Position numbers and translations under genes: made by a program
Shown here: piece after piece, positions 646-54,546 of the stretch
How the letters are laid out: every line of letters starts with the position of its first letter
Position numbering within the stretch: position 1 is the first letter of the stretch
Notes under the pieces: model-generated
What the model was told of the DNA's origin: nothing
The model's input: only the letters and a program-made list of their open reading frames with translations
Databases searched by the model: none
DNA from: a virus
Taxonomy: Duplodnaviria; Caudoviricetes
Reading direction: 5' to 3' (one strand)
IMG/VR virus record: IMGVR_UViG_3300009158_000060
Span: 1 to 57,551 of that record
DNA: 57,551 nt

Positions 646-654
646 AGAAAGGAG

Positions 655-682: not shown

Positions 683-715
683 GTTAAACGTTAGACAAAA
701 CAACAGGAGAAGCAA

Positions 716-1165: not shown

Positions 1166-1181
1166 TCAGGAGAAATATCAC

Positions 1182-2135: not shown

Positions 2136-2140
2136 GGAGG

Positions 2141-2158
2141 AGGGGGCTTCGGCCCCTT
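2141..2158 (+). promoter_or_regulatory. UUCG-tetraloop hairpin between SSB and HTH genes
   Basis: GGGGC-TTCG-GCCCC, lying between GGAGG and ATG 2164; no long U tract. Confidence 0.5.
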
Positions 2159-2163
2159 ACAAC

Positions 2164-2442
2164 ATGGCTTACTCACAACAAACAATCAACATGGTCATGA
2201 AAGCGCCGAAGACGTTGGGTAACCAACTCGGGCGCTGGGCTGTTCACCACAACTTTTCTGTCGTAAGAATCTCTCAAGCACTTGGTGTTTCACGCCAATC
2301 TGTTTACAACTGGTTCGGCGGCGGCGAAGTTTTTGTAGCTTACCGGCCATCGGCAAGCTCACTTCTCAAAATCCTACAAACATCAAGCACAGCCGACGAG
2401 GCTTGGAGAAAAACATGCAAGGCATTCAACCTAAGCAACTGA
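2164..2442 (+). CDS. Cro-like HTH DNA-binding protein
   Basis: VVRISQALGVSRQSVYNWF helix-turn-helix; start reassigned to ATG 2164 (MAYSQQ). Confidence 0.7.
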   Translation: MAYSQQTINMVMKAPKTLGNQLGRWAVHHNFSVVRISQALGVSRQSVYNWFGGGEVFVAYRPSASSLLKILQTSSTADEAWRKTCKAFNLSN

Positions 2443-2624
2443 GTAACAACGAACTTCTACGCTACATCTACATCACGGGCTTCGACAAAGTTCCACCGGA
2501 CTGGGTTGAGACGCTTGTAGAACGCTTGGCTGGTTTTATTGATGCCAGAGAATCAATCTACCAAGATGGCTTTGAAGAAGGTTTTCAGCAAGGCGTAGCA
2601 CACGCTAACGACGACTTCAAATAA
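2415..2624 (+). CDS. hypothetical protein
   Basis: GGAG RBS, ATG 2415, overlaps the HTH gene end. Confidence 0.6.
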   Translation: MQGIQPKQLSNNELLRYIYITGFDKVPPDWVETLVERLAGFIDARESIYQDGFEEGFQQGVAHANDDFK

Positions 2625-2638
2625 CCCAAAGGATAGAC

Positions 2639-5548: not shown

Positions 5549-5735
5549 ACCGGGGGAGGGGTTTTTTGTTCCCGGGTTGGATGTCGTAAAGATAAAGGAA
5601 CTGGGGCTACGCGCCTCAGTTCCTTACAAGTACCGGACTCAATCCTTTATTGGTATCAGAAAGGGGTTGATAGGTGTATGGTTTTATCGGAAACCTGTCT
5701 CACAGTCTCCGCCACGGCGATCTTTATCTTCCTGA
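5517..5735 (+). CDS. small hypothetical protein
   Basis: ATG 5517, YPWATLKPGEGFFVP motif; overlaps primase end and the 3' end of the convergent giant gene. Confidence 0.5.
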   Translation: MEIIYPWATLKPGEGFFVPGLDVVKIKELGLRASVPYKYRTQSFIGIRKGLIGVWFYRKPVSQSPPRRSLSS

Positions 5736-8700
5736 TACTGTCGAGTTGCGCACGCTTTTCTTCTGGCGACATGTTTGATGCGGCAATCGCCCGTTCAGCT
5801 TGAGTCAACTTATTCATGTTGGCTTTAAACTTGTTGGCCATATCGGCTTGCATGTACTCATTGCCGCGACGTTGCAGTAAACCCATTGCGCCAGACATGT
5901 TGCCTTCTTTCACCATCTGGTCAAACGTGTGCTTAACCTTGAGGTTCTCGTTCATGCGCTCGTACACGTTGTTGATGATGCCGCCAGCGTCATTGGGTTG
6001 GAACGCACCACCAACAATAGGGTAGTCTGACAGCCGCTTAACAGCTTGCTCAGGGGTTTCACTTGCGGGTATGCCCACACTGAGTGCGTGCATGAACGCT
6101 GTACCCATAGTGCCGGTGTAGCCACTGATGAGCTGCTCAAACACAATGGGGGAGATGCCCAGTGCTTTACCAACACTTTTGGCCAACTCTGATGTGTTGG
6201 CGCGGAACTGTTCTTCCGGCAGTAGCTGCTTCTCACGCGCAGACAAAATATCCCTACCTGTGTAGAACGACTTGCCAAGCCCGGCTTCAATAGCGGGTTT
6301 CATTATCTGCGGTATGCCGTATGACGAACCGCCGGGTATTGTCTGAAGCAGAATTTGTTTGAACGCTTGCACAGCTTCTTCGCCGCCATGCTCATTGACC
6401 ATGCTGTTGTACAACGCCTCAGGCAACGCTTTGAAAATGTAACCAACTTCAAACGGAACTGGTATACGTACAGGCTCATCCAAACCCGGAATGCGCACAA
6501 ACCAGTTGCCGTATTTTTGGTCAGGGGTAGCGTTCTTGTACGCGTCGTCGTCCTGCATCAAAGCGGCATAGGCAAGGCTGGCCACGGCCATCATGGCACC
6601 ACGCTGTAACATCTTTTCACGGATACGCAGTTGATCGTTGAAAGGCATTTTGCCCATTGACGCTTTGTACAACACGTTCAGACCTTGAATCTGTGCGTTG
6701 AAGAACGGTATCAGTGCATTGGCTACATGTATTGATGGGGACGCGCCTCGCTTGTTGAAGTTCATTGACTCCAGCGCCAACAGTGTTGCCTCCATCTCAG
6801 ACAAACCTTGGTTAATGTAGCTGTTGTACTGCGCACGGCGTGTCGTAGCATCTGCCTCCATACCCATAGCTTCAAGCTTGCCAAGCGCAGACATCCAGCC
6901 CGGCTTGCCCTCAGACACATCACGCAGAATCTTGGTGAGGTCGGCGGCACCGCCAGTAAACTGCTGCCCACCGGTAATACCACGGCGCTCAAGTGTCTGC
7001 TTGGTTGAGGAGTTCAGTTCTTTCAGCGCACCAATGACCGGCATGAAGTCAGCACCCGAGATGATGGGCGCGGCCACAGAGTCACGGAACAACTGCTTCG
7101 CCATGTACAACGGGCTGATAGTAATTGCTTTACGCAACAACAAAGATGGCATCGCCATGACGCGCAACATTGCGGGCATCTGTGTAGGAATACCCTCCAT
7201 ACCTTTGACCAGTATGTCGGCGGGCACGCCAGTATCAAATTCCTTGTTGCCGATCTTGACCTTCTCGGTAGCCAGCACTGCGTAACGATCTTCCCCGTCA
7301 ACACGGAACTTGACCACGTTGGTGCCAGAAGATATTTTTACAAACTTAGCGGCGTTCAGATCAACAAGTTCATGCACAGCATTCTTGGTTGCCAAATTGC
7401 GCATGCCCATATCCATCAACAAGTTGGTGTTTTGCACAGAGCTTGTCAAAAAGTCAAGGATAGGGTTCTCACCGCCAACTAACTCATGTAGGTATGGTTG
7501 CTCCGCAATGCTGCCTATGCGGATAGGAGACTCACTACCAATCACAAGCTCGGCCACGCCGTTGCGTTCACGATAGAACGGAATGTAATCATTCTCGCTG
7601 AGCAGACGCTTTGCAACATCTTTAGATAGAGCGCCAGTGCTGACAACAAAGTTCACCAAGTTGCGGTTGTACGCGTTGTACTCATCTCGCGCACGTTTGA
7701 ACACATCTTCTAAGCCGGGTGTTGCCTTGATGGCGGCCATAGTGTCGTTCAGCAGTTCCTGTGTCACGCCTTCACCAAAGTTCAGTGAACTCAGACCTTT
7801 GTTACCTGCACGGATAGATGCCATATACATGGTGAATTGCCTGTTGACCGCTTCAGCATTGCCGACCATTGGCTGTGCGTCTTTCAGAATCTGCACCACG
7901 TTGTGGATGTTAGCGCTCTCTTTGCTCTCCAGTACGCGCTCAACGCGTCCGTCGGGACGAGTCTTCTCAGTGATTGCTGGTGCACCGTTAGAGATTGCCT
8001 GTGACACAAAGTTCATGCGCTGGTCGTACATGCGCAAGTAGTACAGCATTTGCGTACCCTTGAGCGGCTCCATGTATTTGGCCAGACGCTCGAAGCCTGC
8101 AAACCTATCAACAAGCTGTGTCTCAAAAGCTAGACCTGTGGCGTTGGCCTTAATCTTTTCAGACCAGCCTTTTTGTTTAGCCACAATCTTGTCAACAAAC
8201 TCACTGTGTTTGGCAATCTCTGGGTTGGTGTATTCCGCTGAACGCGAGAACAGCATCTCGCCTTTTTGCCTTGGTTGTGTTTGACTGACTGGGTTGATGT
8301 CAGTAGCGATGATCTGCGCACCTTCATCTTTGTCGCTGAAATCAACGTAATTGTATGTACCGGGCGCTGCTGTGTATAAGGAAGCGTGTCTTGATACAGC
8401 ATCAAAAAACTTTACACCCGCAACGCCTTCGGCATGCAACATTTCAGACGTAAACATAGGGCACAACTCACTTGGCATACCACTTTGTTCAAGCACAGCA
8501 CTTAAAGCGTTATATAAATCACTCCCGCTTTGCCGATCTGGCCGTACATGGCCTATTGAACGGTTAAATACTGCTTGCTGTCTGCTGTCTAACAAATCAT
8601 AGATACGTTTGAACGCATCTTTAACAACTTCTGTTTGTTTGTCTGCATGTTGATCCCAAAGAATGTATTCGTTTTCAGGCCGCGTGTGTAGTGTACGCAT

Positions 8701-11700
8701 CATGTAACCCGCTGGCTCAGGCACAGGCGGCCCAGATGGCGGGTTGTATTGAAAGTCGTTTACGTCAAGCGCGTCAATAGTGTCTAGAACTTCTTTTGCC
8801 GTGTTGTATGCGTCTTTTGACGCAGGGTTTTCAAAACCTTCAAAGTCTTTTAAATCCTTTTTAGCCTCAACTTTTGTTGCAGCAATAGCTTCTTTCCAAG
8901 TTGGCGGAGTGCCGTTGTTTTCTCTAATAGTATTTTCAAAAACATTTACTGTGTATGCGGCAGCTCTGTTTGTGTTCCACAATTCATGAAACTGTTTGCC
9001 CTTGTAAACCGCATTTACAAAAGGAACTTTTAAATGTTCATCCGCAGTTTCTGCAAACTTTTTAAGTTCTTTAATTTTCTTATCTACTTCTGCAACGGAT
9101 AATTCACGCATCCATTCAACACGCCAACTTGTAGGTTTGGCAATAGGCGTTTTTAACTTAGTGTTCACAACAATAGGTCTGGCAACAGTTCGTGCGGGTG
9201 TTGCAGTTACAGGCCCGTACCCATAGTCTTTAACTGGCAATGCAGATGCGGGTAAAGCTGCTAAAGCATGTTTTGGCCTTTCTTCTTCAATGTTTTCTAT
9301 TTCGCCTTGAACAGCTTCTTTAAAAATTTTATACGGGTTTTCACCGGTTTGCGCGTTATTAACTTCGCGCAAAGGCATGTTTAAAAACTGTTCTGGGATA
9401 CCCGCTGGCAGTTTGCCTGTAAATTCAGGTTCTTGACTTTTAAACCACGCTCTTATGTCTGAACGATCTACCCACTGGTCATACAGGCCACCTGTTTTTG
9501 TAACTGCTTCTACACGGTAATAATCGGCCGTTCCATATCTTTGCCCGCGATATGTTCCCCAACCAAAAGTTTGCATCCCTGAACCAGTACTCATATGTGT
9601 ATGGTCAAACATGTCAAAAGTAACGCCTGTACCGTGCCAAGTTCCTTTGAGTTCAATGTGCGCCGCGCCGTAGGCAAAGTTAACCAAGTCGCCAGCAGTC
9701 AAGTTCTTAGAAGTGATGCCAAACTTTTCAAGCGCTTTTTTAAACGCATCCACCACCATATTCAACCAGTTCTTGACTGCGTTGCCACCTTTAACGCCGA
9801 CAGGCTCAACACCCATCTGCATGGCTTCTTCAACAGCATATGCCAACAACTCATCGTCAATCTGGTGTGGGGGAGTGTTAGCAGCCTCAACCCTGCGCAC
9901 GGCGGCTTTACCAACACGCGCTTCCATTGAGTCTTCAGTTTTGTTTGCCCAGTTCTTAACTGTCTTGACCAACGCGTTGTACTGGCCTTCATTAAAGAAA
10001 TTGCGGAACCCCATGTGCACGCCAACTTCGTGGAGCAGCACGCCAAGTCCGTGACCTTTACCAATGTTGTTGGCAAACAGTACCGCTTTGCCGTTTTGAA
10101 CAAAGCCTTTGGCATTTGTTGGAATCTTGTTGCGCAAATCGTTTCGAGTGACTTCTTTAAACTTGCTCAGGTATTCGTCAAGATTTTCATACACTGCTAA
10201 CTTCTCGGAAACCATTGCCTCAATCTTGCGCCCAGTAACTGGCTCGCCCATACCGGCGGTGAGTTCTGCTTCAAGCTCCGCCTTGGTCAATCCTTTAACT
10301 GGTGTACCACGAGAAAATTCAAAGTCGTCAAACAATCCCATATTGGGATCAACCATTTTGCCTTGCTTACGCTTGCTTGGTTCTTTCAACTGCGGGGCTT
10401 TGGTGCCAAGAATTTGTTTGGCCAAAGCATTGGCATCACGCAATTCAGCGCGATCCATCTCATCCATTTCTGCTGGAGTAAACGCTTTTGCTACGCCTGA
10501 CCCAGTACGGAATGGTTTAGCCGCCGCCAACGCGGCAGTGCTTGGCACAGTAGCTGCCTTGGGTGCTTTAGCTGGCTTGCCTGTAAGGAACACTTCTTTT
10601 TGCGCTTCCAACGAAGCCAGCTTCTGCATAGCGCCCAGCTTGAGCGTTGCCTGTACACGTTTGACGTTGGTTGTCTTGGGGTCGGCCATGATGTCGGCCA
10701 ACTGATTTGTGTCTTCTGGCCCCATGAACGTCTGCACTTCACCACGTGCGTCAAAGATTTCGTCATCAAATATCTGAATCTGTTTGTCTTTGACTCGTTG
10801 AAGTACTGCGGCCTCATCAACTTCTTTTGCCGCCTGCATACCGTTGTCGCGCAAATCATCAAGACGCTTCTGTTCTGGCGTGTTGATGTCTGCAACCTTG
10901 CGGCCTTTTTCAAACACTGCGCCGGGCAAGTCTTTGACGCTGATGCCGTCCTTTTTGAACGCAGCAGTAACCTTGGGCCACCATACCTGCACATTTTTCT
11001 GAAACTCATCCGCACGTTTCTTGGCTTCATCCACAGCAGCTTGCTGTGCTTTTACTTGTGACTCTACGCGTTGTGCAGAGAATGGGTACTTGAGTTTGCC
11101 TAGTTCGCCTGCTCTGCCAGTTTCAACCGCAGTCAAAGGTTCTTTGCGCATGTCTGCCAACTGGCGCTCAAGTAGTTCTAGATACTCACGTTCTGTCTTG
11201 AGGTCTTTGTCCAGCATGGCTTCGGTGACAACAACGTCGTTTTCAATTTCACCAAAGCGGGTTTCTTGCAAGTCGGCCAGTTCTGTTTCAGCGGTCTCAA
11301 TGTTTTCAACAAGCCCTTGAACTTTTTGCAAGTTGTTAATTAAGTTTGGCGCTTGGCCAGTACCCTCAGTCATTTCTTTCTTGGCTGCTTCAATCTGTGA
11401 CTCAACAGTAGCCAGACGTGTCTTGGCCGCTTTCAAAGCACGACGTGCGCGTTCAATTTCAGGATCAAGCAACTCACCCAACGTATCAGACAAACGCTGT
11501 CGGGCTTTGCCCATCGCGGTGGCCATAGCCTTTTGATACGCATTACGCTGGTTCTGAAGTGAAACTTCTGAGTCAAGCATTGCGCGTTGGCCGTCAGTCA
11601 ACATAACTGAGTTACGCAAACTATCTTTGATGAGCTTTAACTTCTCCAGTAGTGGTTCAACAGTTTTACGAGCTGCTTCTGATTGTTTACGCACAGCCGC

Positions 11701-14700
11701 ATTGTTGTCTTGCATCAGTTCAACTAAACGGTTATTTGTGCTTTCAAGACGTTGTCCCAATGAAAGTGCTTGCAAAGCTTGCTTAACGTTCTTTTCGTAC
11801 TCAGGAATCTTGTTTGTGTTGAAGTCTTGGATTAACTTGTTTACTTTTTGTTTTTCTTCCTCAGTAAACACAGACATGTTTTTTTCTTGCTGTTCAGCGG
11901 TCTTACCAATGCCTTGCCTTGATACTTGCAAGTAACGATCCATCAACGCCTTATCTTCTTTGGTAACGCCTGCTTCTGGATATGACGCAAACATTTTTGC
12001 AATGTCTGCATTTGAATACTTGCCAATATTGAAGTCTCCCGGCTTAAGCAGGAAAAACTGCATTTGATTTTTAAGGGCTTCAAGCTGTTCTTCTATTGCT
12101 TCAATTTGCGCAAAACCTTGCTTGTCTCTGGTAGCGCGTGCTTTCTGATTGGCTTCTGTTTTTGCCTTGAGCTTGCGTGCCTGATCCAACGCCTCCCACA
12201 CGGGTTTAATCTCAGGGGACTTGGCAAAGTTGGCCGGTGTGGCACGGATGTAGCCAATGTCTTTGCGTGTTTCAGGGAACAACTGGCCTTGACCTTTTGC
12301 GCCTTCACCAGCAATCTCACCTTCTTGAGCTGTGCTTTCATACAGCTTTATGGCATCTTGAAGCTCACGCAATGAGCTACCCTCGGGTGCCAGCGCGGCT
12401 TCGTAACCTACTGATTTGTATGTACGGCGTTCTCCAAAACGGGTTTCAGCTTCTCTGCCGGGGACATTCTCTACAACGCGTTTGCCGGGGACAGCTTCAC
12501 GGCGGGTGTAAGTTTGCTTGCCGAGGTCTTCACCGCGCAGGATGCGTGCGGCTTGGTTCTGAGCTGCGTCCAACAAAGGCTTGCTGGCTTTGCCGTCTTC
12601 AATGATTTCCTTGACGCGTTCCAGTGCTTCTCGAATACCTTGAGTGCGGATCGGGCCGTCTTCAGTTTCTGTGACCGCGCCTTCTGGGATGTTCCGTGTC
12701 AGCGCCTTGTCAATCATGTTGCCCACGTATTCACGCAGGCGGCGCATCTCTCCACCCGCCGTCTTGGCAGTTTCACCCCGGGCTTCAGCAACCTTCTGAG
12801 CTTCCGTAGTAGCAAACTGCTGTTTTAGCAGCGGTGTTTCACGTGAAACCTGTGATGGCATCTGAGACAGGCTGTCAACAACCTTGGCAATCTGCGCTTT
12901 GAAATGCTTTACTTCTTTGTCACTCAGGCGTGCAATGTCGTTCAACGGCGTGGTAGCCAGATCACGGGTCTTCAAAACACGTTTGGTAACAGCGCCACGC
13001 ACAATCTTGTTGGCTCGCATCTGTGCAGGCTGCACAATTACTTCTTCAAGCTCTGGTTTTTTAGGCACAGCCTGTGCGCGGCTCAACCATTCACCCACCA
13101 CATCATGAATGCGCGACGCGGCTTTGATTGCCTCATCATAGGTTAGTGCGGGTTTACCCGCAACACGGCGGTGGATGGCAGCTTCTTCCAACACCGCAGA
13201 AATGTATTTGCCACGGGCTTCTTCAGCTTGTTGAGCCAACACCGCAGGAGAGGCCGCAGACGCGCCTTGGCCGTACGGCAGTAGTTCTTCTCTGTATTCA
13301 CCTGTTTTTTTATCCAGTATACGTTGACGTTCTTTACCCAACGCATCACCGCGACGCAGACGATCAATCTTGTCTTCAATCGTGTTTAAAGCGGTGTCTT
13401 GCTCGTTGCGTGTGCGCAGTACTTCTTGGGCGTAAACGCTGGCTTGTGGGCTTGTTGCGGCGCTTGGGAACTTGCCTTTTGTCAGGTCGCCAGCAGGTGT
13501 TGGTTCTGCAAAAGCGTTGAGTTGCTCAAGTGCCTGATTACCTCTTTCAAACGCAGCAGTTGCCGCATCGCGGTTGTTTGAGCGCAGTGCGGCATCTCTG
13601 TCCGTATTAGCTTGGTCTATTTCATCAAGCAGTGTGTTTATTTTGCTACGCACACGTTCAGCTTGCTTAGGTTGCGCAAACGGTTTCAACTCAGGGTTTA
13701 CAGCAATTACTGGGGGTTTACCCTCACTTATTTTCTCCAGCTTTGGCTCGACCATGTATTTGAAAAACATGTCATCGCCAACGTCATTGCGCGTATCTTT
13801 GAGGTCGTCCATGTACGAGGTGAACGCCTGCACATGTGGGGATTCTTTTTCTGCGGGTTTAGCGGCACCAAAAGCTGCTTTGCGTGTTTCCATCTCCTGC
13901 TTAAAGCCCGGAGCAATTTGCAACTTCAACGCATCTAAAACCGCAGAGTTACGCACACCGGTAGGCAACCCGGGTAATTGCATACGTTTACTGACAATCT
14001 GATCCGCCAGCATTGGGTTACGCATCAAGTATGAAACGTAGTCGGACACAGCCTCGTTGGGGGCTTTTTCACCGGAAAGTTGTTGGTCATTGGCCAACTG
14101 AATACTCTGGGCAGCATGCTGCGCTGCAATATCCTCTGCCTTCGGCGGCTCAGGCGGCTTGGCAATCTGTTGTTCGTACAGCTCAGGCTCAGCGGGTTTT
14201 TTTGCCGTTTCCTCAGGCTCCATGCCAAACGCATATTCTTGCGGGGTTAACTTGGCAACACGTGCCTGTTCTGCTGCTTGTTTCAGAATAGGTTTGACAC
14301 GCACATACTCATCAGCCAGTGGTTTAAGTTCTTTGTTTATGGCATCAATCTGGCGGTTAACTTCTCGATTGTTTGCGTAATCCGTTTCTGGAGACACGCC
14401 TTTCTTTATTGGAATTAACTGTTGTTTGAGCGCCGTACGCTGGGCTTCCAAGTCCTGCGTCTTCTGGAACACTTCTTGGGCGTACGCTGGGCTGTTGAGG
14501 CGAATCTTCTCTTCTTCCTGCCGCTTTTCTTCATCGGCGCGAAGTTTCTTGAACTCCTCTTGATCTGCGCCACGTTGTTTGCCGCGCTCTTCCCCGCGTT
14601 CAAAATACCTACCAGCAGGGGCCAATGTGCCGCCAAGAACAGCGCCCCCAATAAAGTTATCAAAATACTCACTTCGAGCTTTTTCGTCGGTAATAGACAG

Positions 14701-15504
14701 GCCCGCTTGTAAACGTTCAAACACCTGTTGGCCCGCTTCGGTCAGACCTTCGGTGCCCATTGCCTTACCTGTAGCAAGTGCGTAATCTTTGGCAATTTGC
14801 GCAGTAGATTGCTTAGTAGCCTCCAACAACACTTTCTCTGGAACTTCTTTACCAGCAGCCGAGAAAATTCCACGAATACCGGGGAGCATCTTTAAGCTCA
14901 GTACATCCAACGCAGCCTGAGGAATAGATGCCGCAAACGCAGAGCCAAGAGAAGTCTCACCCAGTTTCTTGCCCTCGTCCATCTGACGGGACAAGTTTGA
15001 ACCAGTGAACTGCGCAGCGGAGGTCAGGCCGGTAGCACCAATACCTGCGGCTTCTCCGGCAGTAAGTAACCCACCAAGCACAGGCGCAGCAGCCGCAGCT
15101 TCTGGTAATGCCAAAGCAGCCAGACCAGCGGCCACAGGCGCGGCCATGTACGGCAAAGACCCGCCCAACAGTTCAGTGGTTTTGGTTAAGGGGGCTTGGA
15201 GCCATCCTTCTTGGGTAGGCGCAAATGTGCGCTTCTTATATTCTTCTTGTTCTTGGATGTACTTCTCAGCCGCAGCTTCATCCATCAATCCGGTCTTACC
15301 GGCCAGCGCAGCAACGTCGCCTTTTAATGAAGCAATCCCTGCTTTGGCGGCAGGAATAAATCCAGACTCAGGTTTAGCTTGTGGTTCTGGGCGCTTAAAG
15401 GCTTCAGGGTACATCTGCTGCGCTCGGGCGTATGCCTGTTCCGGGGTCTCCCCGTCTCTAATTAATACTTGAGTACCGTCTGGTAATGGAACAGCTTGAG
15501 GCAT
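5656..15504 (-). CDS. giant virion-ejected polyvalent protein (zincin-like HExxxH, ART-like and LPD38-like domains)
   Basis: 3282 aa; LLHEVGVH; WHGTG..FD.F...GSGMQTFGWGTY; C-terminal IPFFNAQIQG and RIPVPFEVG..FKALPE; last gene of the structural operon. Confidence 0.75.
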   Translation of the reverse strand: MPQAVPLPDGTQVLIRDGETPEQAYARAQQMYPEAFKRPEPQAKPESGFIPAAKAGIASLKGDVAALAGKTGLMDEAAAEKYIQEQEEYKKRTFAPTQEGWLQAPLTKTTELLGGSLPYMAAPVAAGLAALALPEAAAAAPVLGGLLTAGEAAGIGATGLTSAAQFTGSNLSRQMDEGKKLGETSLGSAFAASIPQAALDVLSLKMLPGIRGIFSAAGKEVPEKVLLEATKQSTAQIAKDYALATGKAMGTEGLTEAGQQVFERLQAGLSITDEKARSEYFDNFIGGAVLGGTLAPAGRYFERGEERGKQRGADQEEFKKLRADEEKRQEEEKIRLNSPAYAQEVFQKTQDLEAQRTALKQQLIPIKKGVSPETDYANNREVNRQIDAINKELKPLADEYVRVKPILKQAAEQARVAKLTPQEYAFGMEPEETAKKPAEPELYEQQIAKPPEPPKAEDIAAQHAAQSIQLANDQQLSGEKAPNEAVSDYVSYLMRNPMLADQIVSKRMQLPGLPTGVRNSAVLDALKLQIAPGFKQEMETRKAAFGAAKPAEKESPHVQAFTSYMDDLKDTRNDVGDDMFFKYMVEPKLEKISEGKPPVIAVNPELKPFAQPKQAERVRSKINTLLDEIDQANTDRDAALRSNNRDAATAAFERGNQALEQLNAFAEPTPAGDLTKGKFPSAATSPQASVYAQEVLRTRNEQDTALNTIEDKIDRLRRGDALGKERQRILDKKTGEYREELLPYGQGASAASPAVLAQQAEEARGKYISAVLEEAAIHRRVAGKPALTYDEAIKAASRIHDVVGEWLSRAQAVPKKPELEEVIVQPAQMRANKIVRGAVTKRVLKTRDLATTPLNDIARLSDKEVKHFKAQIAKVVDSLSQMPSQVSRETPLLKQQFATTEAQKVAEARGETAKTAGGEMRRLREYVGNMIDKALTRNIPEGAVTETEDGPIRTQGIREALERVKEIIEDGKASKPLLDAAQNQAARILRGEDLGKQTYTRREAVPGKRVVENVPGREAETRFGERRTYKSVGYEAALAPEGSSLRELQDAIKLYESTAQEGEIAGEGAKGQGQLFPETRKDIGYIRATPANFAKSPEIKPVWEALDQARKLKAKTEANQKARATRDKQGFAQIEAIEEQLEALKNQMQFFLLKPGDFNIGKYSNADIAKMFASYPEAGVTKEDKALMDRYLQVSRQGIGKTAEQQEKNMSVFTEEEKQKVNKLIQDFNTNKIPEYEKNVKQALQALSLGQRLESTNNRLVELMQDNNAAVRKQSEAARKTVEPLLEKLKLIKDSLRNSVMLTDGQRAMLDSEVSLQNQRNAYQKAMATAMGKARQRLSDTLGELLDPEIERARRALKAAKTRLATVESQIEAAKKEMTEGTGQAPNLINNLQKVQGLVENIETAETELADLQETRFGEIENDVVVTEAMLDKDLKTEREYLELLERQLADMRKEPLTAVETGRAGELGKLKYPFSAQRVESQVKAQQAAVDEAKKRADEFQKNVQVWWPKVTAAFKKDGISVKDLPGAVFEKGRKVADINTPEQKRLDDLRDNGMQAAKEVDEAAVLQRVKDKQIQIFDDEIFDARGEVQTFMGPEDTNQLADIMADPKTTNVKRVQATLKLGAMQKLASLEAQKEVFLTGKPAKAPKAATVPSTAALAAAKPFRTGSGVAKAFTPAEMDEMDRAELRDANALAKQILGTKAPQLKEPSKRKQGKMVDPNMGLFDDFEFSRGTPVKGLTKAELEAELTAGMGEPVTGRKIEAMVSEKLAVYENLDEYLSKFKEVTRNDLRNKIPTNAKGFVQNGKAVLFANNIGKGHGLGVLLHEVGVHMGFRNFFNEGQYNALVKTVKNWANKTEDSMEARVGKAAVRRVEAANTPPHQIDDELLAYAVEEAMQMGVEPVGVKGGNAVKNWLNMVVDAFKKALEKFGITSKNLTAGDLVNFAYGAAHIELKGTWHGTGVTFDMFDHTHMSTGSGMQTFGWGTYRGQRYGTADYYRVEAVTKTGGLYDQWVDRSDIRAWFKSQEPEFTGKLPAGIPEQFLNMPLREVNNAQTGENPYKIFKEAVQGEIENIEEERPKHALAALPASALPVKDYGYGPVTATPARTVARPIVVNTKLKTPIAKPTSWRVEWMRELSVAEVDKKIKELKKFAETADEHLKVPFVNAVYKGKQFHELWNTNRAAAYTVNVFENTIRENNGTPPTWKEAIAATKVEAKKDLKDFEGFENPASKDAYNTAKEVLDTIDALDVNDFQYNPPSGPPVPEPAGYMMRTLHTRPENEYILWDQHADKQTEVVKDAFKRIYDLLDSRQQAVFNRSIGHVRPDRQSGSDLYNALSAVLEQSGMPSELCPMFTSEMLHAEGVAGVKFFDAVSRHASLYTAAPGTYNYVDFSDKDEGAQIIATDINPVSQTQPRQKGEMLFSRSAEYTNPEIAKHSEFVDKIVAKQKGWSEKIKANATGLAFETQLVDRFAGFERLAKYMEPLKGTQMLYYLRMYDQRMNFVSQAISNGAPAITEKTRPDGRVERVLESKESANIHNVVQILKDAQPMVGNAEAVNRQFTMYMASIRAGNKGLSSLNFGEGVTQELLNDTMAAIKATPGLEDVFKRARDEYNAYNRNLVNFVVSTGALSKDVAKRLLSENDYIPFYRERNGVAELVIGSESPIRIGSIAEQPYLHELVGGENPILDFLTSSVQNTNLLMDMGMRNLATKNAVHELVDLNAAKFVKISSGTNVVKFRVDGEDRYAVLATEKVKIGNKEFDTGVPADILVKGMEGIPTQMPAMLRVMAMPSLLLRKAITISPLYMAKQLFRDSVAAPIISGADFMPVIGALKELNSSTKQTLERRGITGGQQFTGGAADLTKILRDVSEGKPGWMSALGKLEAMGMEADATTRRAQYNSYINQGLSEMEATLLALESMNFNKRGASPSIHVANALIPFFNAQIQGLNVLYKASMGKMPFNDQLRIREKMLQRGAMMAVASLAYAALMQDDDAYKNATPDQKYGNWFVRIPGLDEPVRIPVPFEVGYIFKALPEALYNSMVNEHGGEEAVQAFKQILLQTIPGGSSYGIPQIMKPAIEAGLGKSFYTGRDILSAREKQLLPEEQFRANTSELAKSVGKALGISPIVFEQLISGYTGTMGTAFMHALSVGIPASETPEQAVKRLSDYPIVGGAFQPNDAGGIINNVYERMNENLKVKHTFDQMVKEGNMSGAMGLLQRRGNEYMQADMANKFKANMNKLTQAERAIAASNMSPEEKRAQLDSIRKIKIAVAETVRQVSDKTIHLSTPF

Positions 15505-42121: not shown

Positions 42122-43660
42122 TCAGTAGTACGCCGCCACGCGGCGCTTGAAAAATCGGGGTTCGTCCGGCTCATCGGTGTCGATTCTGATGAAGCCGCCT
42201 TGTCTGACGCGCAGCAGTGCTTGGGTGGTTGTGTCCACGTAGTCATCGTTCTCCCCCACAGGGAAGGCCGCAACTTCTTCAATCACTTCGCGTGCCCAGC
42301 GTGTGTCAGGTGCCCACACCAAGCCGGATGCAAACATGTCGGCCACGGCATTGACACGCACCATCTTATCGTTTCCACGGCTGGGTGTAAATTCCTGCAC
42401 CGGGATGCCCATCGCCCGAAGCTCTTGGATTAGGGGGCCACCAGCGGCTTTCTTCTCCACAATGAACGCATCCGGCTCCCACTCCGTCCAGTGCTTGAAG
42501 GCAGAGACCTTGAGTTCAGGAAACGCCATCCTGTCCTTAAACGCGTCCAGCAGGATCACCTGCGCCTTGTTGTTCTCTTCTTCGTTGTAGAACACGCCCC
42601 ACGTTGTGCACGCACTGTAGTCAGATGTGCTCTTTGTCTCGTGTGCCGTGTCCCAGCTCTGGATTATGTATTCACAACTGGGGGGTTCTTTGGGTTCCCA
42701 TATGCGCCAATGTTTTCTGGAGATGATCGCCGCCGTGTCGCTGGTTGGCTGCTGCATGTACTGCGCGTTCCAGTACCGTGGCTCCATTGAGGACTTGGCG
42801 CTCAGGAGGGACTCCAGTGGCCACTGCTCTGGCCAGAGTGACTTCTCGTTCTCCTTACCTTCGTTCAGAATGGCCGGTAGCTCCACGATCTCCCACTGGG
42901 GTGAGTCTGGGTTATTGGCTTGGTACTGTATTAGGCGACCGGTCAAGTCCAACGGCCCCCAGCGCGTCATGATGACAATGATCGCCCCGCCCGGCATCAG
43001 TCGTTGGAGTGGGCCTGTCTGGAACCACGACCACGCCGTGTCGAAGGCGAGTCGGCTATTGGCTTTAACATCTTGCTCAGAATGCGGGTCGTCGATAACG
43101 AAAAGATCAGCTCCCCGACCAGCCAGAGCACCACCAACACCGGCAGCATAATACTGACCACCAGCAGCAGTAGACCACTTTCCAGCAGCCTTCTGATCGT
43201 CAGCCACAAGCGTTTGAGGAAAAAGTTCATGGTATTGCTCATCGTCCAGTAAGTTTCTGACTCTGCGTCCGAAGTCCTCGGACAGCGATGCGGTGTGCGT
43301 TCCCATGATGATCTTCTTATTAGGGAAATTACCTAGGAAGAACGCGGGGAACAGATAGCTGGAGAACTCGGACTTACCCATCCGTGGCGCAATATTGATG
43401 ATGACGCGCTTCTTTTTACCGGCAATCACGTCCTGAAATATCTTGGCCAGCTTCCTGTGGTGCGGCCCGACTTTAAATCCGGGGTAGACGTGCATGGCAA
43501 ACTTAATCATGTCTGTGCGCCCGGCCACCAGCGCGTACCGTTTCTCACGTTCCTCCAACATGTCCATTAATTCCACTTTCTCTTTAAGAGAAAGCGTTGG
43601 GAGGGCGCGTTGAATCGCCTGCGCTTCAGTCGGGCTGAGCGTCAGTTCGTTCAGGTTCAT
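42122..43660 (-). CDS. terL: terminase large subunit
   Basis: APRMGKS Walker A, VIDDP Walker B, MTRW, SWDTA and DDYVD nuclease motifs. Confidence 0.92.
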   Translation of the reverse strand: MNLNELTLSPTEAQAIQRALPTLSLKEKVELMDMLEEREKRYALVAGRTDMIKFAMHVYPGFKVGPHHRKLAKIFQDVIAGKKKRVIINIAPRMGKSEFSSYLFPAFFLGNFPNKKIIMGTHTASLSEDFGRRVRNLLDDEQYHELFPQTLVADDQKAAGKWSTAAGGQYYAAGVGGALAGRGADLFVIDDPHSEQDVKANSRLAFDTAWSWFQTGPLQRLMPGGAIIVIMTRWGPLDLTGRLIQYQANNPDSPQWEIVELPAILNEGKENEKSLWPEQWPLESLLSAKSSMEPRYWNAQYMQQPTSDTAAIISRKHWRIWEPKEPPSCEYIIQSWDTAHETKSTSDYSACTTWGVFYNEEENNKAQVILLDAFKDRMAFPELKVSAFKHWTEWEPDAFIVEKKAAGGPLIQELRAMGIPVQEFTPSRGNDKMVRVNAVADMFASGLVWAPDTRWAREVIEEVAAFPVGENDDYVDTTTQALLRVRQGGFIRIDTDEPDEPRFFKRRVAAYY

Positions 43661-44234
43661 TGCGGCTTTCGTTTATCTCTATGTCTTCTATTGGTTCAGC
43701 GTCGGTCACGCCCATGAACTTGGCCAGCTTTTCTTTGAGCTTGCGGTCGATCTCTTCGTCTGTCAGATCGGTCTTTTTGATTTCAATCTTGTCGGTAAAT
43801 AGCCCGACTTCTGTAACTTTACCCAGTAAGCCTAAAGCTTTCAGGCGAATGTTGGCGTTGGGGGATTGCGTTTCCTCAAACAACTTGGCCACCGTGTACC
43901 CACGGAGTTCCTTGGCCATCTGTACAAATTCCCAGTCGTACGCTGTGAGCATGCCCGTGATGTGGCGCACAGCGGCGGGGGTTTTGAGTTGCAGGAGTTT
44001 TGTTTTCTGTTCGTCGGTGTCTTGGTCAGACACGATCATCTTAAAAGCGTCGCGTGCCAGATGGGTCTGGGTTTCTGTATGTATCTTCTCGTCAGGCGTT
44101 GCGCCCAATTCTTCTAGCCACTGCGCGGTGGCAATTTGCGCCGACAGAAGTTCCGCCGTATCTACAGCAGCTATTGTTACGAAATCTTCCAGACCGGTGT
44201 CGTCTGGGGAAAACTGCACCAAATGCTCCAACAT
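43626..44234 (-). CDS. terminase small subunit (probable)
   Basis: directly upstream of terL; RLKALGLLGK...VGLF. Confidence 0.6.
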   Translation of the reverse strand: MLEHLVQFSPDDTGLEDFVTIAAVDTAELLSAQIATAQWLEELGATPDEKIHTETQTHLARDAFKMIVSDQDTDEQKTKLLQLKTPAAVRHITGMLTAYDWEFVQMAKELRGYTVAKLFEETQSPNANIRLKALGLLGKVTEVGLFTDKIEIKKTDLTDEEIDRKLKEKLAKFMGVTDAEPIEDIEINESRNEPERTDAQPD

Positions 44235-44261
44235 TTTTATAAGCTGTGTTTTTACACAGGG

Positions 44262-44290
44262 TTGTTGCGCGTTGGGTTGCAGTGTACACT
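44262..44290 (+). promoter_or_regulatory. putative sigma70 promoter for the candidate sRNA
   Basis: TTGTTG-17 bp-TACACT, start about 44297. Confidence 0.4.
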
Positions 44291-44296
44291 TATTTC

Positions 44297-44371
44297 AAGT
44301 TGTGGGCAACCACTGCTTCTCCTAGACTGCAAAGTCTTTTAGCCCCCGTCAGCAATGCCGGGGGTTTTTTT
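44297..44371 (+). ncRNA. candidate sRNA with three GCAA hairpins and an anti-SD tract
   Basis: GTGG-GCAA-CCAC, AGACT-GCAA-AGTCT and CCCCCGTCA-GCAA-TGCCGGGGG-T7; CTCCT between hairpins 1 and 2. Confidence 0.55.
44343..44371 (+). terminator. intrinsic terminator
   Basis: GC-rich stem followed by TTTTTTT. Confidence 0.75.
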
Positions 44372-44603
44372 ATGGGCGGTTATTTCTAAATTTTATAAAA
44401 ATTTATGGGGGTAGGGGCGTTTTGACTTGACGGGGGGTGTTGTGGGATTGGAGTGGTATTAAGTATTACAGAAGTGCTGGGAATCGGAGGGGAATAGTGT
44501 TCACGGCCAGACGGGTCGTCGCTGTCCACAAAGGGGGATGGGGGTATGGTGGGGTCTAAGGTATACACATATACCATGTCAAGGGGATACCACAACCTGT
44601 TTG

Positions 44604-44612
44604 TGCTATAAT
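44604..44612 (+). promoter_or_regulatory. extended -10 early promoter
   Basis: TG-C-TATAAT upstream of the first early gene. Confidence 0.65.
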
Positions 44613-44648
44613 AGATTTATCGATTGGGGGAACTCAGTCGTTCTGTCG

Positions 44649-44675
44649 CCCCGCCAGTTGCGGGGTTTTTCTTTT
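44649..44675 (+). terminator. terminator-like hairpin in the early leader
   Basis: CCCCGC-CAGTT-GCGGGG-TTTTTCTTTT immediately before RBS GGAG. Confidence 0.55.
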
Positions 44676-44687
44676 GGAGAGTTAACA

Positions 44688-45080
44688 ATGAAACTTGCAA
44701 CACACATCAACAGCAACATCTATCAGGCTATCGTGCCTACTCTGAAACTCGCAGACATCACGTCTGCCAGTCTGCTAGACACACTGCTCAAGAACGGGAT
44801 AGGTACACGCAAGGATGCAGTGCCTTATGTCGTGTTCTATGTCTCTGAGTTACCTAGTGCCACACGCAAGCCTTACGAGGGTCAGCGGGGTTGGACATTC
44901 GGGCGAGGCACTGCTGAGCAGAAACGCACCGACAGGATTCTCGACAACATCTTTGTGGATGTCGAGGCAGACGCAAAGAAACCAAAGACAAGCAAGAAGA
45001 AGGACAAGGTTGCTCGCCTTGTGACAGCGTACGAGGGAATGACTGCGGCTGAGAAGCGTCGCTTCTTGGCTTCAATCTGA
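44688..45080 (+). CDS. first early gene, basic hypothetical protein
   Basis: RBS GGAG, ATG 44688 (MKLATHIN), Lys-rich C-terminus. Confidence 0.7.
   Translation: MKLATHINSNIYQAIVPTLKLADITSASLLDTLLKNGIGTRKDAVPYVVFYVSELPSATRKPYEGQRGWTFGRGTAEQKRTDRILDNIFVDVEADAKKPKTSKKKDKVARLVTAYEGMTAAEKRRFLASI
44746..44771. repeat. palindromic repeat copy 1 (inverted, intragenic)
   Basis: AACTCGCAGACA-TCA-CGTCTGCCAGT. Confidence 0.7.
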
Positions 45081-46738: not shown

Positions 46739-46764
46739 TGTATAAACAACTTTGGGAGAAGTAA

Positions 46765-47037
46765 ATGAGTGACTTTGATTTCACATGGAACTACCGCATC
46801 GTCAACGCCAAGTCAGAGAACAACGGGGAGGATTGGTACTGTCTGAAAGAGGTGACATACAACGACGGCAAACCCACAGGCTATGGCAACCCATGCACAG
46901 GGTCAGAAACGCCTGAGTCCATGCGTGATGTGTGGCACATGATGGAGAAGGCAATGCAGTTGCCGCCGTTGCAAGAGGAGGACTTTGAAAAGGGGGAGGG
47001 GTACACATTCGAGGACTTATTCAATGAGGGGGTTTAA
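46765..47037 (+). CDS. hypothetical protein
   Basis: WNYRIV...EVTY..GKP; RBS GGAG. Confidence 0.65.
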   Translation: MSDFDFTWNYRIVNAKSENNGEDWYCLKEVTYNDGKPTGYGNPCTGSETPESMRDVWHMMEKAMQLPPLQEEDFEKGEGYTFEDLFNEGV

Positions 47038-47256
47038 ATGAAAGTCAGACAGATACGCCAAAGGGCTAAGACCCACTACATATCAGAGGAAGGCTTCAAG
47101 TTCTTGCGTGGTGCCATAGGCAAGCGATGCCGTACCTATGAGGCAGGGTGCGCTGTCTGTGATGAGTGGCGCTTTCGTGATGAGCATGGACGCTTCGTCT
47201 ACAACTTTGAAGAGTTGCGTAAATACATGGACATAACAGAGGGAGAAGCAGAATGA
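47038..47256 (+). CDS. hypothetical protein
   Basis: GKRC..YEAGCAVC Cys motif; RBS GAGG. Confidence 0.6.
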   Translation: MKVRQIRQRAKTHYISEEGFKFLRGAIGKRCRTYEAGCAVCDEWRFRDEHGRFVYNFEELRKYMDITEGEAE

Positions 47257-47675
47257 AAACAAATCAACTGACAGGACACGCCCTTAACTGGGCGGTGGCG
47301 CAAGCCGAAGGTGACAAGGTGTACCGCCCACGCTTGGGTAGACCCGAGGACTGGGACAAGGAAGCGTATCTTGCGGATGGGTCAGACGATAGGTGGGTGG
47401 TGCGTGTGGAGAACCCGACACTCGCTTACTTTGTGGACTGGACATACAACCCAAGCGGTAGCTGGTGGCAAGGTGGGGAGATTGTTGAGAGGGAAGTGCC
47501 GATGCTGATGAGGACGAACGGCGGCGACTGGATTGCTCAAGGCTGTTACGACATAGCCAACGACACAGAGGCGAAGAGGTACTACGGAAAGACGCTACTT
47601 GAAGCCGCCATGCGGTGCTATGTAGCAAGCAAACTCGGCGATGAAGTCGAGATACCCAAGGAGTTAACAACATGA
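47253..47675 (+). CDS. NinX/DUF2591-like protein
   Basis: LTGHALNWAVAQAEG, YNPS..W.QGG.I.ER, L.AAMRCYVASKLG. Confidence 0.65.
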   Translation: MKTNQLTGHALNWAVAQAEGDKVYRPRLGRPEDWDKEAYLADGSDDRWVVRVENPTLAYFVDWTYNPSGSWWQGGEIVEREVPMLMRTNGGDWIAQGCYDIANDTEAKRYYGKTLLEAAMRCYVASKLGDEVEIPKELTT

Positions 47676-50736: not shown

Positions 50737-50759
50737 GTTAAACATAACAGGAGAAGTAA

Positions 50760-51956
50760 ATGAGTTTCGAGAAGATGACCCTCAACCAACGCATACAAGC
50801 GGTCAACATAGACTGCATGCGGCATCCAAAGTTTGCACTGCTCAGCGCAGTGATCTGCATGGGCAAGTCTGAGGTATCAGACAAGGTGCCTACTGCATCC
50901 ACCAATGGGCGTGACAAGAAGTATGGCGTGTCTTTCATCACACCCCTCAACCGCAAGCAACTGCGGTATCTAGCACTGCATGAAAACTTCCACGTTGCAC
51001 TCAAGCATTGTGTGTTGTATCGCGCAGAGGTCAAGCGTATGCCTAAGCTGTGCAACATAGCGCAGGACTACGTGGTCAATGCACTCATCGAAGAGCTTGA
51101 CCCTAACTTCGAGTTTGTTGAACGCCCCACAAAGACGCTACTGATTGACCGCAAATACTTCGGTTGGTCTTTCCCTCAGGTACTCAATGACCTCATCAAA
51201 CAGGGACGTAAGGAACCCGAAGAAGGTGACGGTGATGGCGATGGTGACAACGGACACGATGAACCCATCGACGCGCATGAGGATGGCGAGTTTGCTGAGG
51301 ACGATAAAGAGAAGCTAAGCAAACAGATTGACGATGCCAATCGTCAAGGCGAGATGCTTGCTCGCAAGCTAGCGGGTCAAGGTGCAGGTGGTCGTGACAT
51401 CTTTGGTCATGCCAAGGAACGCATCACTGACTGGCGACCTGCTATGCAGGACTGGATAACTTCCATGTCCCAAGGCGATGACAACTCACGCTTCTGCCCT
51501 CCCAACAAACGACTGCTTGCGTCTGGCTTCATCATGCCATCGCACTTCACTGAGTCAGTCGGCGAGTTGATACTCGCATGCGATACATCTGGTTCGATGT
51601 ATCCCTACTATCGTTTACTCTTTGGCGAGGTTGCTCGCATCTGTCAACTGGTCAAGCCCGAAGCTGTTCGTATCCTGTGGTGGGACAACGCTGTATGTGG
51701 TGACCAGTTGTTCAAGCCAACTGAGTACGAGTTAATTGCATCTCTCTTGAAACCTCAAGGCGGTGGCGGCACAACTCCACAAGTTGTCGTTGACTACATT
51801 CGTGAGCACAAGATAGAAGCAAAAGGAATCGTATGGCTGACCGATGGGTACCTCGGTTGCGATACGCCTAGCACCCCGATGCCGTCACTGTGGGGTGTGG
51901 TGGACAACGACTCGTTCGTTCCCACTCACGGCAAGCTGTTAAACATCTCTCTGTAA
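50760..51956 (+). CDS. metallopeptidase-VWA protein (DUF2201-like)
   Basis: TASTNG, LHENFH (HExxH), NIAQDYVVN, DTSGSM (MIDAS), GGGGT, LTDGY. Confidence 0.8.
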   Translation: MSFEKMTLNQRIQAVNIDCMRHPKFALLSAVICMGKSEVSDKVPTASTNGRDKKYGVSFITPLNRKQLRYLALHENFHVALKHCVLYRAEVKRMPKLCNIAQDYVVNALIEELDPNFEFVERPTKTLLIDRKYFGWSFPQVLNDLIKQGRKEPEEGDGDGDGDNGHDEPIDAHEDGEFAEDDKEKLSKQIDDANRQGEMLARKLAGQGAGGRDIFGHAKERITDWRPAMQDWITSMSQGDDNSRFCPPNKRLLASGFIMPSHFTESVGELILACDTSGSMYPYYRLLFGEVARICQLVKPEAVRILWWDNAVCGDQLFKPTEYELIASLLKPQGGGGTTPQVVVDYIREHKIEAKGIVWLTDGYLGCDTPSTPMPSLWGVVDNDSFVPTHGKLLNISL

Positions 51957-54030: not shown

Positions 54031-54546
54031 ATGCCTGACATAAAGACGGCGCTGACCACGGCGCTTTCAACGTGGGAACAAGACGATAAACGAATTCAAC
54101 AGGAGAAGCAAGTGCCAAAAAATATATTCACCCCAACCAACAACGTGTCACGCGAGACGTTCAACTACGTCAAGAACAACCCTTTTCGTAGCAGCGGTGA
54201 GATACGTGCCGCACTGACAGCGCGAGGGTTCAACGCAGGGTCAGTGGGTTCCCTCATCACGCAGTTCTTAAAGCAAGGGCAAGTATCGAAAGATGCCAAT
54301 GGTAGATACAACACTATCGTGCCTGAGTACACACCACTGAAAGCAACCAAGCATTTTCGGGCAGAGGGTAAGCGTGTCAACAAAATTGTGAACAAGCCCA
54401 AGGCGGTGGTAAAGGGGCAAGGCATTGCCGCGCTGACACCTCAAAGTACAACAACTCCGTGGGACGTAGACACAGTGCTCGACACCATGAGTATTGTGCA
54501 GGCACGCACCCTGTACGATGCCCTCAAGAAAATCTTTGGAGGTTGA
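54031..54546 (+). CDS. winged-helix-like protein
   Basis: TFNYVKNNP..SSGEI...SVGSLITQF.KQGQV; internal RBS and GTG at 54101-54114. Confidence 0.5.
   Translation: MPDIKTALTTALSTWEQDDKRIQQEKQVPKNIFTPTNNVSRETFNYVKNNPFRSSGEIRAALTARGFNAGSVGSLITQFLKQGQVSKDANGRYNTIVPEYTPLKATKHFRAEGKRVNKIVNKPKAVVKGQGIAALTPQSTTTPWDVDTVLDTMSIVQARTLYDALKKIFGG

Follow-up and report, generated by a model that had tools for sequence, protein, structure and literature searches.

The divergent gap next to the small terminase gene of an uncultured freshwater phage raises a simple question: does the short promoter-to-terminator unit within it encode a functional RNA and, if so, on which messages would that RNA act? The genome is the whole IMG/VR virus record IMGVR_UViG_3300009158_000060 (57,551 bases; ~90% complete by estimate), hereafter called the window. 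Its genes are arranged in two blocks. The plus-strand block, which extends from 44688 to the record end and then from 1 to 5548, contains genes for a helicase, a DUF927 primase-like protein, a NinX-like protein and an ATPase, and the minus-strand block, which extends from 44234 down to 5656, contains the small and large terminase, portal and capsid-region genes. The unit lies in the 454-base gap between the ATG of the small terminase gene (terS; 44234, minus strand) and that of the first plus-strand gene (44688). An earlier note on this DNA, made from the sequence alone, had proposed that a small RNA (sRNA) encoded here represses the translation of early genes in trans by pairing with their ribosome-binding sites (RBSs), and that it could in this way time development or maintain a carrier state.

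The analysis presented here indicates that positions 44291–44371 very probably constitute a real plus-strand RNA gene of ~75–80 nucleotides (nt). The RNA is quite likely related to, or modelled on, the RF02278 family of host sRNAs and to act by RBS pairing, and the phage's own early genes are, on balance, the favoured candidates for its main targets. Taken as a whole, the best explanation, in which we place moderate confidence, is that the phage carries a re-tuned RF02278 relative that would repress its own early genes. These readings rest on sequence comparison and structure prediction.

The RNA gene and its conservation among relatives

The unit comprises a sigma-70-like promoter, two hairpins flanking a CU-rich seed, and a U-rich linker followed by a GC-rich terminator hairpin and a U tail (Table 1). 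The sRNA start probably lies near 44297, as judged from the promoter. The three GCAA-capped hairpins and the U tract described in the earlier note were all recovered, both in the sequence and in the RNAfold fold, and the promoter (TTGTTG-17-TACACT) was present as it had been described. RNAfold assigned the plus strand of 44290–44375 a free energy of -29.6 kcal/mol (z -3.02), which none of 200 shuffled sequences equalled, and predicted three hairpins with a free CUCCU; on the minus strand, z was -1.15 and 27 of 200 shuffles were as good. A T-run 3' of the GC-rich hairpin occurs on the plus strand alone, in line with the earlier remark that the U tract is confined to that strand. Simple scans listed neither the promoter, which matches at 7 of 12 positions, nor the terminator, which was missed because its loop exceeds the limit of the scan. 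When a second seed was sought in hairpin 1 (SL1), only chance-level matches of 10–12 nt were found.

To place the unit among related phages, terS relatives were collected from IMG/VR (212 in total), and 80 loci with 59–100% protein identity were kept. Of the 80 loci, 64 carry the element in the corresponding position, likewise oriented divergently from terS; it is absent from 15 and cut off in one. All 39 distinct sequences (window included) fold into SL1, an unpaired (U)CUCCU, hairpin 2 (SL2), a U-rich linker and a terminator with a T-run. The stem sequences have diverged widely among the relatives and the length of SL1 varies from 12 to ~90 nt; CTCCT is invariant, being found in 37 of 37 distinct aligned sequences.

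Base pairing was first scored with a structure set by hand on 12 diverse sequences that MAFFT had aligned without fitting them to any structure. In this alignment 89.2% of the cells pair, compared with 75.1% in shuffles (0/500 reached the observed value) and at most 51.5% in slid controls, and changes on both sides were found in 14 of the 29 pairs, including all five SL2 pairs. A covariance model (R1) was then built from this alignment; its E-values are rough, coming from a shortened calibration. R1 matched once in the window and once in each of 63 loci, missing only L045, and gave no match in the 15 loci lacking the element or in the complete phages G004 and G014. The alignment to the model (64 matches, 37 distinct), which is biased towards that model, contains 90.5% pairing cells (70.0% in shuffles; 0/500). 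Covariation in the terS-upstream region of relatives, which the earlier note had put forward as a check, is evident here, with both sides changed in 25 of the 29 pairs (SL1, 11/13; SL2, 5/5 compensatory) around an invariant seed. RNAalifold, applied to a plain MAFFT alignment of 38 sequences, recovered the terminator alone because the hairpins vary in length.

The alignment also indicates which strand is the RNA. The paired cells of the R1 alignment include 118 G·U and only 5 A·C combinations, and pairing falls from 90.5% on the plus strand to 79.0% on the minus strand; the excess of G·U over A·C marks the plus strand as the RNA. The promoter points the same way. Among 31 distinct promoter strings from loci with the RNA, the -35 TTG stands at exactly 17 nt in 30 and TAnAnT occurs in all 31, so that TTGnnn-17-TAnAnT is retained despite a diverged spacer. 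Among six distinct strings from loci without the RNA, TTG was found in one and TAnAnT in none (five have GTG as the -35, and C is the last base of the -10 in each of the six). Loci with the RNA have thus kept an intact promoter, whereas in loci without it the promoter has decayed; the two co-occur. The features by which trans-acting sRNA genes are generally recognized, namely a promoter, a terminator, a conserved seed and a compensatory structure, were all found. In L043 and L044, which lack the sRNA, a hairpin (GGGC-AAGC-GCGCCC) followed by TATTTTC is located at the same place upstream of terS and may be a remnant of hairpin 1.

Kinship with the RF02278 family

At gathering thresholds, Rfam models gave no match in the window or in 20 loci. 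A profile of terS, used to scan bacterial genomes, found one locus, a 1.7-kb contig in a metagenome-assembled genome (MAG) titled uncultured Limnohabitans, which carries terS and a truncated copy of the sRNA; R1 gave no match in this MAG, whose sole sRNA copy is cut by the contig end. As a weak hint, the family to which the MAG is assigned may be the host family, and it is so called below. R1 matched in 50 of 151 genomes of this family, and RF02278 was present in 128 of the 151 (99 of them over threshold), whereas the 14 control genomes all lacked it; without the unpublished genome G161, the tallies are 49/150 and 127/150, respectively. When R1 loci were tested individually, seven of seven proved to be RF02278 above threshold (56–68 bits), and in our own comparison 36 of the 58 R1 places coincided with RF02278 places, among them nearly all of the R1 places with E below 1e-3. 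A model built from phage sequences alone thus retrieves the host RNA family.

The likeness extends to the layout of the molecules. Host-family RNAs consist of UUGUCUCCUCC, a hairpin, AUUUAG, a GC-rich terminator with a GCAA-type loop and U6, and the window RNA of (C)UGCUUCUCCU, a hairpin, UUUAG, a terminator and U7. Both therefore present a single-stranded UUG..UCUCCU site 5' of a hairpin, followed by a U-rich linker and a GC-rich terminator whose GCAA loop is common to the two, and the seeds of both are complementary to RBSs. The linker and terminator module of the window RNA is nearly identical to that of the host-family RF02278 RNA L119; the two terminators differ at a single position of the stem. 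Aligned to the Rfam model of RF02278, SL2, the linker UUUAG and the terminator span all 64 positions. At the seed junction, host UUGUCUCCUCC corresponds to UUG+CU+UCUCCU in the phage; the seed UUGCUUCUCCU of relatives equals the host seed with an inserted CU, and the inserts of other variants are CUU, CUC, CUUC and CUA.

The phage RNA differs from RF02278 in several respects. It has an extra 5' hairpin (SL1), which the host RNAs lack, and 2–4 extra bases in the seed between UUG and UCUCCU. It has no second CU-rich loop: the SL2 loop is GCAA, whereas the corresponding host loop is CUCCUCC or CCUCCG. In the family members described in the literature available, such a second site is Site 2 of S17S, located in the loop of the first hairpin, and ncS03 has two CU-rich regions. 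Finally, the RNA is carried by phages, and its best matches are phage start regions rather than host ones. It would thus work like an RF02278 RNA, while scoring below the family threshold and lacking the second CU-rich site.

What RF02278 RNAs do is partly known. Members of the family, which Rfam names Betaproteobacteria toxic small RNA, include the double-hairpin RNAs ncS03, ncS05, ncS27 and ncS62, i.e. bdhR of Burkholderia cenocepacia, and S17S of Bordetella pertussis. The four B. cenocepacia homologues contain unpaired CU-rich stretches that are the reverse complement of an RBS, and 55–80% of their predicted interactions fall no more than 20 nt from a gene start; growth is slowed when ncS27 is over-expressed, and an antisense RNA to its CU-rich region has the opposite effect (all in the consulted text of PMC5688073). 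S17S, which is close to bdhR1 (RF02278), co-precipitates with Hfq in B. pertussis; of the 92 genes up-shifted in its absence, 70 contain matches to its single-stranded sites on or close to the RBS, and a lacZ fusion has verified one target (PMC11722255). The 'toxic' name is traced in the excerpt of PMC4603805 to toxicity in E. coli. Our literature search found no description of a phage-borne RF02278 relative.

Complementarity to start regions of the phages

Within the window, the seed complements named in the earlier note were all found: AGGAGAAGCA at 705 and 54101, GGGAGAAGCA at 47241, AGGAGAAGTA at 50749 and GGGAGAAGTA before ATG 46765. Complements of the seed with at most one mismatch number 10 (3.87 expected; 0/100 shuffles reach 10), a count that includes the antisense strand of the RNA gene itself and a null that ignores the enrichment of Shine–Dalgarno (SD) sequences at gene starts. 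When predicted duplexes were ranked over the 78 start regions of the window, eight of the top 10 were on the plus strand. The start regions of the two blocks differ in their motifs: GGAGAA[AG] occurs in 10 of 34 plus-strand and none of 44 minus-strand regions and AGGAGT in two and eight, respectively, and the late capsid-region RBSs read AAGGAGT, just as the earlier note had reported. The same 18 nt, CAACAGGAGAAGCAAGTG, precede GTG 716 and GTG 54112 (697–718 and 54093–54114); the gene around the open reading frame (ORF) at 54031–54546 may have two starts or be mis-called. Three copies of the 10-mer AGGAGAAGCA are found in the 57.5-kb window, compared with 2, 1, 7 and 4 in four host-family genomes of 1.9–4.0 Mb, where a control pattern occurs 4, 6, 8 and 7 times. 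These counts would favour phage targets, with the qualification that the genomes represent the host family and perhaps not the true host.

The comparison was extended to 11 genomes or fragments with the RNA (a twelfth, G010, was too small, its one 21-nt minus-strand match being apparently the antisense of the RNA gene). Contiguous matches of at least 9 nt to the seed of the same phage occur in 51 of 378 plus-strand start regions and in none of 343 minus-strand ones. Duplex energies were lower on plus- than on minus-strand start regions in nine of 10 genomes (p 4e-6 to 0.054), the exception being G013. Shuffled-flank seeds that keep CUCCU reached the observed number of strong duplexes in 0–13.5% of 200 trials, and in at most 5% in eight of the 10 genomes, and a generic probe for the 16S tail separated the strands less well than the seeds in most genomes. 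The split between early and late RBSs and the complementarity beyond the SD core, both described in the earlier note, are upheld by these results.

In one lineage the start regions have changed together with the seed. G003 and its kin have the seed CAUUUGCUUUCUCCUU, and AAGGAGAAAGCAAAUG is present at 13 of 48 G003 start regions, forming a 16-nt match that includes the AUG. Seeds of the window type match 0–1 of the G003 start regions, and in the G003 counterpart of window gene 716 (identified by position and size) AGGAGAAGCAA has become AGGAGAAAGCA. A seed-swap matrix gave no clean diagonal because two start-region motifs are common to all of the phages, and strict co-evolution is therefore not claimed; to judge from the matches, the RNA is matched to the motif rather than strictly co-evolving with it. 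All seeds would still pair if a one-base bulge is allowed. The 2–4 extra seed bases extend the predicted complementarity to 10–16 nt of AGGAGAAGCAA(A)UG, a signature that is recurrent in early/replication genes and absent from late genes.

Table 1. Positions of the RNA gene, its parts and its predicted targets in the window
Feature	Position	Strand	Remarks
Sigma-70-like promoter of the sRNA	44262–44290	+	TTGTTG (44262–67), 17-nt spacer, TACACT (44285–90)
-10 palindrome AGTGTACACT	44281–90		Contains the sRNA -10
sRNA gene	44291–44371	+	Covariance model R1: 53.6 bits, E 1e-9, sole match in the window
Hairpin 1 (SL1)	44297–44318	+	Outer AAGU/GCUU; inner GTGG-GCAA-CCAC (44302–13)
Seed TGCTTCTCCT (RNA form UGCUUCUCCU)	44314–44323	+	CUCCU (44319–23) unpaired; GCUU paired at the SL1 base
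Hairpin 2 (SL2)	44324–44337	+	AGACU-GCAA-AGUCU
Linker, terminator hairpin and tail	44338–44371	+	U-rich linker UUUAG, GC-rich terminator hairpin, U7 tail
Terminator hairpin	44343–64	+	CCCCCG..(CA-GCAA-TG)..CGGGGG, then T7 (44365–71)
Small terminase gene terS	43626–44234	-	Divergent neighbour of the sRNA; predicted from position
Predicted target: start region of gene 716–1165, AGGAGAAGCAAGTG	705–718	+	Duplex -21.1 kcal/mol, second best of 78; weak Pfam DUF7307
Predicted target: start region of gene 47253–47675 (NinX-like), GGGAGAAGCAGAATG	47241–47255	+	Duplex -22.2 kcal/mol, best of 78
Predicted target: start region of gene 46765–47037, GGGAGAAGTAAATG	46754–46767	+	Duplex -18.3 kcal/mol
Predicted target: start region of gene 50760–51956 (DUF2201 metallopeptidase/VWA-like), AGGAGAAGTAAATG	50749–50762	+	Duplex -15.5 kcal/mol
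Predicted target: GTG 54112 inside ORF 54031–54546, AGGAGAAGCAAGTG	54101–54114	+	

Proposed action, alternatives and setting of the gene

Several observations weigh against a re-tuned RF02278 relative that represses early genes of the phage. Some concern the RNA itself: part of its seed is occluded in the RNAfold fold, where GCUU pairs with AAGU at the foot of SL1 while CUCCU stays free (a caveat already raised in the earlier note and now borne out), and the GCAA loops emphasized in that note, although present in the window, are not all GNRA in the relatives. Others concern the family. The window RNA scores 20.5 bits against the RF02278 model, below the gathering threshold of 50; L081, L022 and L009 score 29.8, 24.2 and 23.5 bits, and the other nine of 12 loci are unlisted at a lax E-value. 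RybB and sroB are other weak Rfam matches to the element. Given such sub-threshold scores, the kinship could be convergence on a simple design, and the host family hangs on one 1.7-kb binned contig. The remaining points concern targets. Gene starts come from our heuristic caller with strand territories and include some spurious ORFs; some G003 sites are counted twice owing to its repeated ends, and G006 is nearly identical to G011. In the window itself the difference in duplex energy between the strands is modest (p = 0.054). Two seed variants are not mirrored in their own start regions: with the insert of G001 and G002 (..CUCUCUCC..), the G001 seed matches two of 38 of its own start regions, compared with five of 38 for the window seed, and the G011 seed (..CUAUCUCC..) matches one of 19. 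In G008, AAAGCA sites are more numerous than would be predicted from its AAG-type seed. Lastly, the complete phages G004 and G014, in which R1 has no match, keep AGGAGAAGCAA at six and three start regions, so the motif exists for a reason of its own. The trans-acting repressor of early genes put forward in the earlier note is thus sustained as regards a conserved RNA gene, RF02278 kinship and an RBS split, and weakened by the two unmirrored seed variants and the two RNA-less phages that keep the motif.

The motif in RNA-less phages would be expected if the RNA, though real, acted mainly on the host, by mimicking RF02278 through the UCUCCU core or by competing for Hfq, with the phage matches being secondary. 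The module that the phage RNA has in common with RF02278 RNAs of the host (seed core, hairpin, U-rich linker and terminator) fits this possibility as well, as do the regulation of many host genes by the family (described in the consulted parts of PMC5688073 and PMC11722255) and the phage sRNAs acting on host mRNAs and the Hfq competition described in the part of PMC12197685 at hand. We nevertheless consider it unlikely: the conserved flank GCUU, adjacent to the core, is unlike the host seed and suits the phage motif, and the 10-mer complement is dense in phages and not enriched in the four host-family genomes (1–7 copies; control 4–8), the latter being a weak argument since these genomes may not be those of the true host. 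An action in cis is considerably less probable still. The seed would pair with a G-rich leader loop, GGGGGAAC (~44627–44634), and alter termination at 44648–44672; the window and most relatives do have a conserved promoter–leader–terminator unit on this strand, 250 nt downstream, and ~7 pairs (two being G·U) could form between the loop and UUCUCCU. This pairing is, however, short and weak compared with the 10–16-nt start-region matches, and sRNA-less phages keep a similar leader (L050).

Two further readings, each highly improbable, do without a trans-acting RNA. In one, the unit would serve simply to insulate: AGTGTACACT, the symmetric -10, would fire both ways and the terminator would halt a useless divergent transcript before the early promoters. 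The palindromic -10, shared with a possible terS promoter, and the strength of the terminator are what such a device would need, but a terminator alone would suffice, whereas compensatory pairing is kept in SL1 and SL2, CUCCU is invariant in all 37 sequences, and the plus-strand -10 has decayed in phages without the RNA. In the other, function resides on the minus strand, where the seed reads AGGAGAAGCA, a strong SD, and would serve as the RBS of a small upstream ORF or N-terminal extension that aids translation of terS, or as part of a late promoter. The 12 nt ahead of the terS ATG contain no SD; ATG, GTG or TTG follows AGGAG by 4–10 nt in 22 of 35 distinct sequences; a 27-codon ORF ends 8 nt inside terS in L074–L078; and L047, L067 and L081 have an ORF that shares the reading frame of terS and might extend its protein N-terminally. 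A seed that mirrors SD-to-AUG stretches is, however, expected to be followed by a start codon on that strand anyway, and 13 of the 35 sequences have none. The ORFs range from 4 codons to open, lie in frames 0, 1 and 2 relative to terS and encode unrelated peptides, while variation in the length of SL1 makes the spacing of the motif from terS and from the -10 palindrome differ by ~70 nt. The G·U excess (118 vs 5 A·C) and the T-run mark the plus strand. Among the relatives (35 distinct sequences), no conserved minus-strand ORF was found opposite the sRNA; a cis-antisense RNA of the sar or OOP kind would control an overlapping transcript on that strand.

If the RNA is a re-tuned RF02278 relative directed at early genes, its action may be pictured as follows. 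Host RNA polymerase would transcribe it from the sigma-70-type promoter facing away from terS, and transcription would end at the intrinsic terminator. Hfq would bind via the linker, terminator and U tail. The unpaired CUCCU would nucleate on the SD, and pairing would extend through the spacer, in some cases as far as the start codon, so that the base of SL1 opens. Binding of the 30S subunit would thereby be blocked on a subset of early mRNAs, and late genes with AAGGAGU-type sites would be spared. As AGTGTACACT reads the same towards terS, one may speculate that the RNA is made together with the late mRNAs. A more tentative scenario, for which we would claim rather little confidence, is that a global RBS-targeting sRNA of the host was captured and installed next to the late operon, where it uses a shared symmetric -10, and that its seed was re-tuned by the 2–4-base insertion to suit the SD–spacer–AUG signature that only the phages' own early genes carry, producing a switch from early to late translation in which the early signature is a self-addressed tag that the host sRNA half reads.

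The gap contains further elements. The palindrome AGTGTACACT is perfect and offers a TACACT -10 in both directions, so it may serve a divergent terS promoter too; in sRNA-less phages the site reads AATGTACACC, giving TACATT towards terS and TACACC towards the early side. For the candidate minus-strand terS promoter, the -35 spacing is inconsistent (17–19 nt) and no -35 was seen in phages without the RNA. A second promoter-to-terminator unit occupies 44600–44687 on the plus strand and includes an extended -10, TGcTATAAT (44604–44612), a ~55-nt leader with the hairpin CGATTG-GGGGAACT-CAGTCG, an intrinsic terminator (44648–44666) with a T-run, and then the SD GGAGAG and ATG 44688. The leader and terminator are conserved in L005, L013, L018, L029, L039, L040, L047 and L061, and the unit looks like an attenuator or a second short RNA. 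An operator-like palindrome, TGTCyAAnGTTTGACA, is located ~10–30 nt past the sRNA terminator in most relatives (L013–L081), its right half being the TTGACA -35 for a TATAAA -10 17 nt away; it has been deleted in the lineage of the window (window and L002–L008). Similar palindromes occur upstream of some plus-strand genes, e.g. GTTAAACGTTAGACA before gene 716 (~685–700). A G-rich plus-strand block at 44395–44560 (e.g. GGGGGATGGGGGTATGGTGGGGTCTAAGG and AATAGTGTTCACGG) is retained throughout the relatives examined, the sRNA-less L050 among them, and is possibly a packaging or replication site beside terS.

As to the rest of the window, the name terS was given from the position of the gene ahead of the large terminase gene, its protein having no PHROG or Pfam match. 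A single ORF of 3282 codons (5656–15504, minus strand) stands at the end of the late block. No tRNA genes were found in the window, and neither an integrase nor a repressor was seen in the analysis, in which no search was aimed at either. A blastn comparison of 44100–44800 with GenBank phages gave no match.

Characterized phage sRNAs are few, and those in the consulted part of a 2025 review come from phages of enteric bacteria and vibrios (PMC12197685); the words Betaproteobacteria and Burkholderia do not occur in that review. VpdS of vibriophage VP882 and PreS of lambda resemble the present RNA in being short phage RNAs with their own terminators that are said to act with Hfq on mRNAs, VpdS reportedly affecting both phage and host mRNAs; they differ in belonging to temperate phages of Gammaproteobacteria and in that the same part of the review describes no kinship with a host sRNA family (PMC12197685). 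The c4 RNA of P1 and P7 is likewise a phage RNA that blocks translation by pairing around an RBS, according to the portion of the review consulted (PMC12197685). It acts on one mRNA (ant) via loops, whereas here a linear seed faces many start regions, and Rfam gave no C4 match in the window.

In T4, start regions of early genes are silenced by the proteins RegA and RegB, GGAG marking the RegB sites. The analogy is functional only, proteins acting there and an RNA here; in the more tentative scenario of a captured host sRNA, the phage RNA would be an RNA counterpart of RegA and RegB. What the analysis describes is an RNA gene conserved in a large group of uncultured freshwater phages, the likely source of which is a known host sRNA family. 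Since its predicted targets lie in the same genome, the proposal can be tested by a few reporter fusions without growing the phage. If confirmed, it would mean that a phage can take over a translational regulator of its host and redirect it to phage genes as a means of timing development, and it would also allow the early genes of unknown phages to be marked by their start-region signature.

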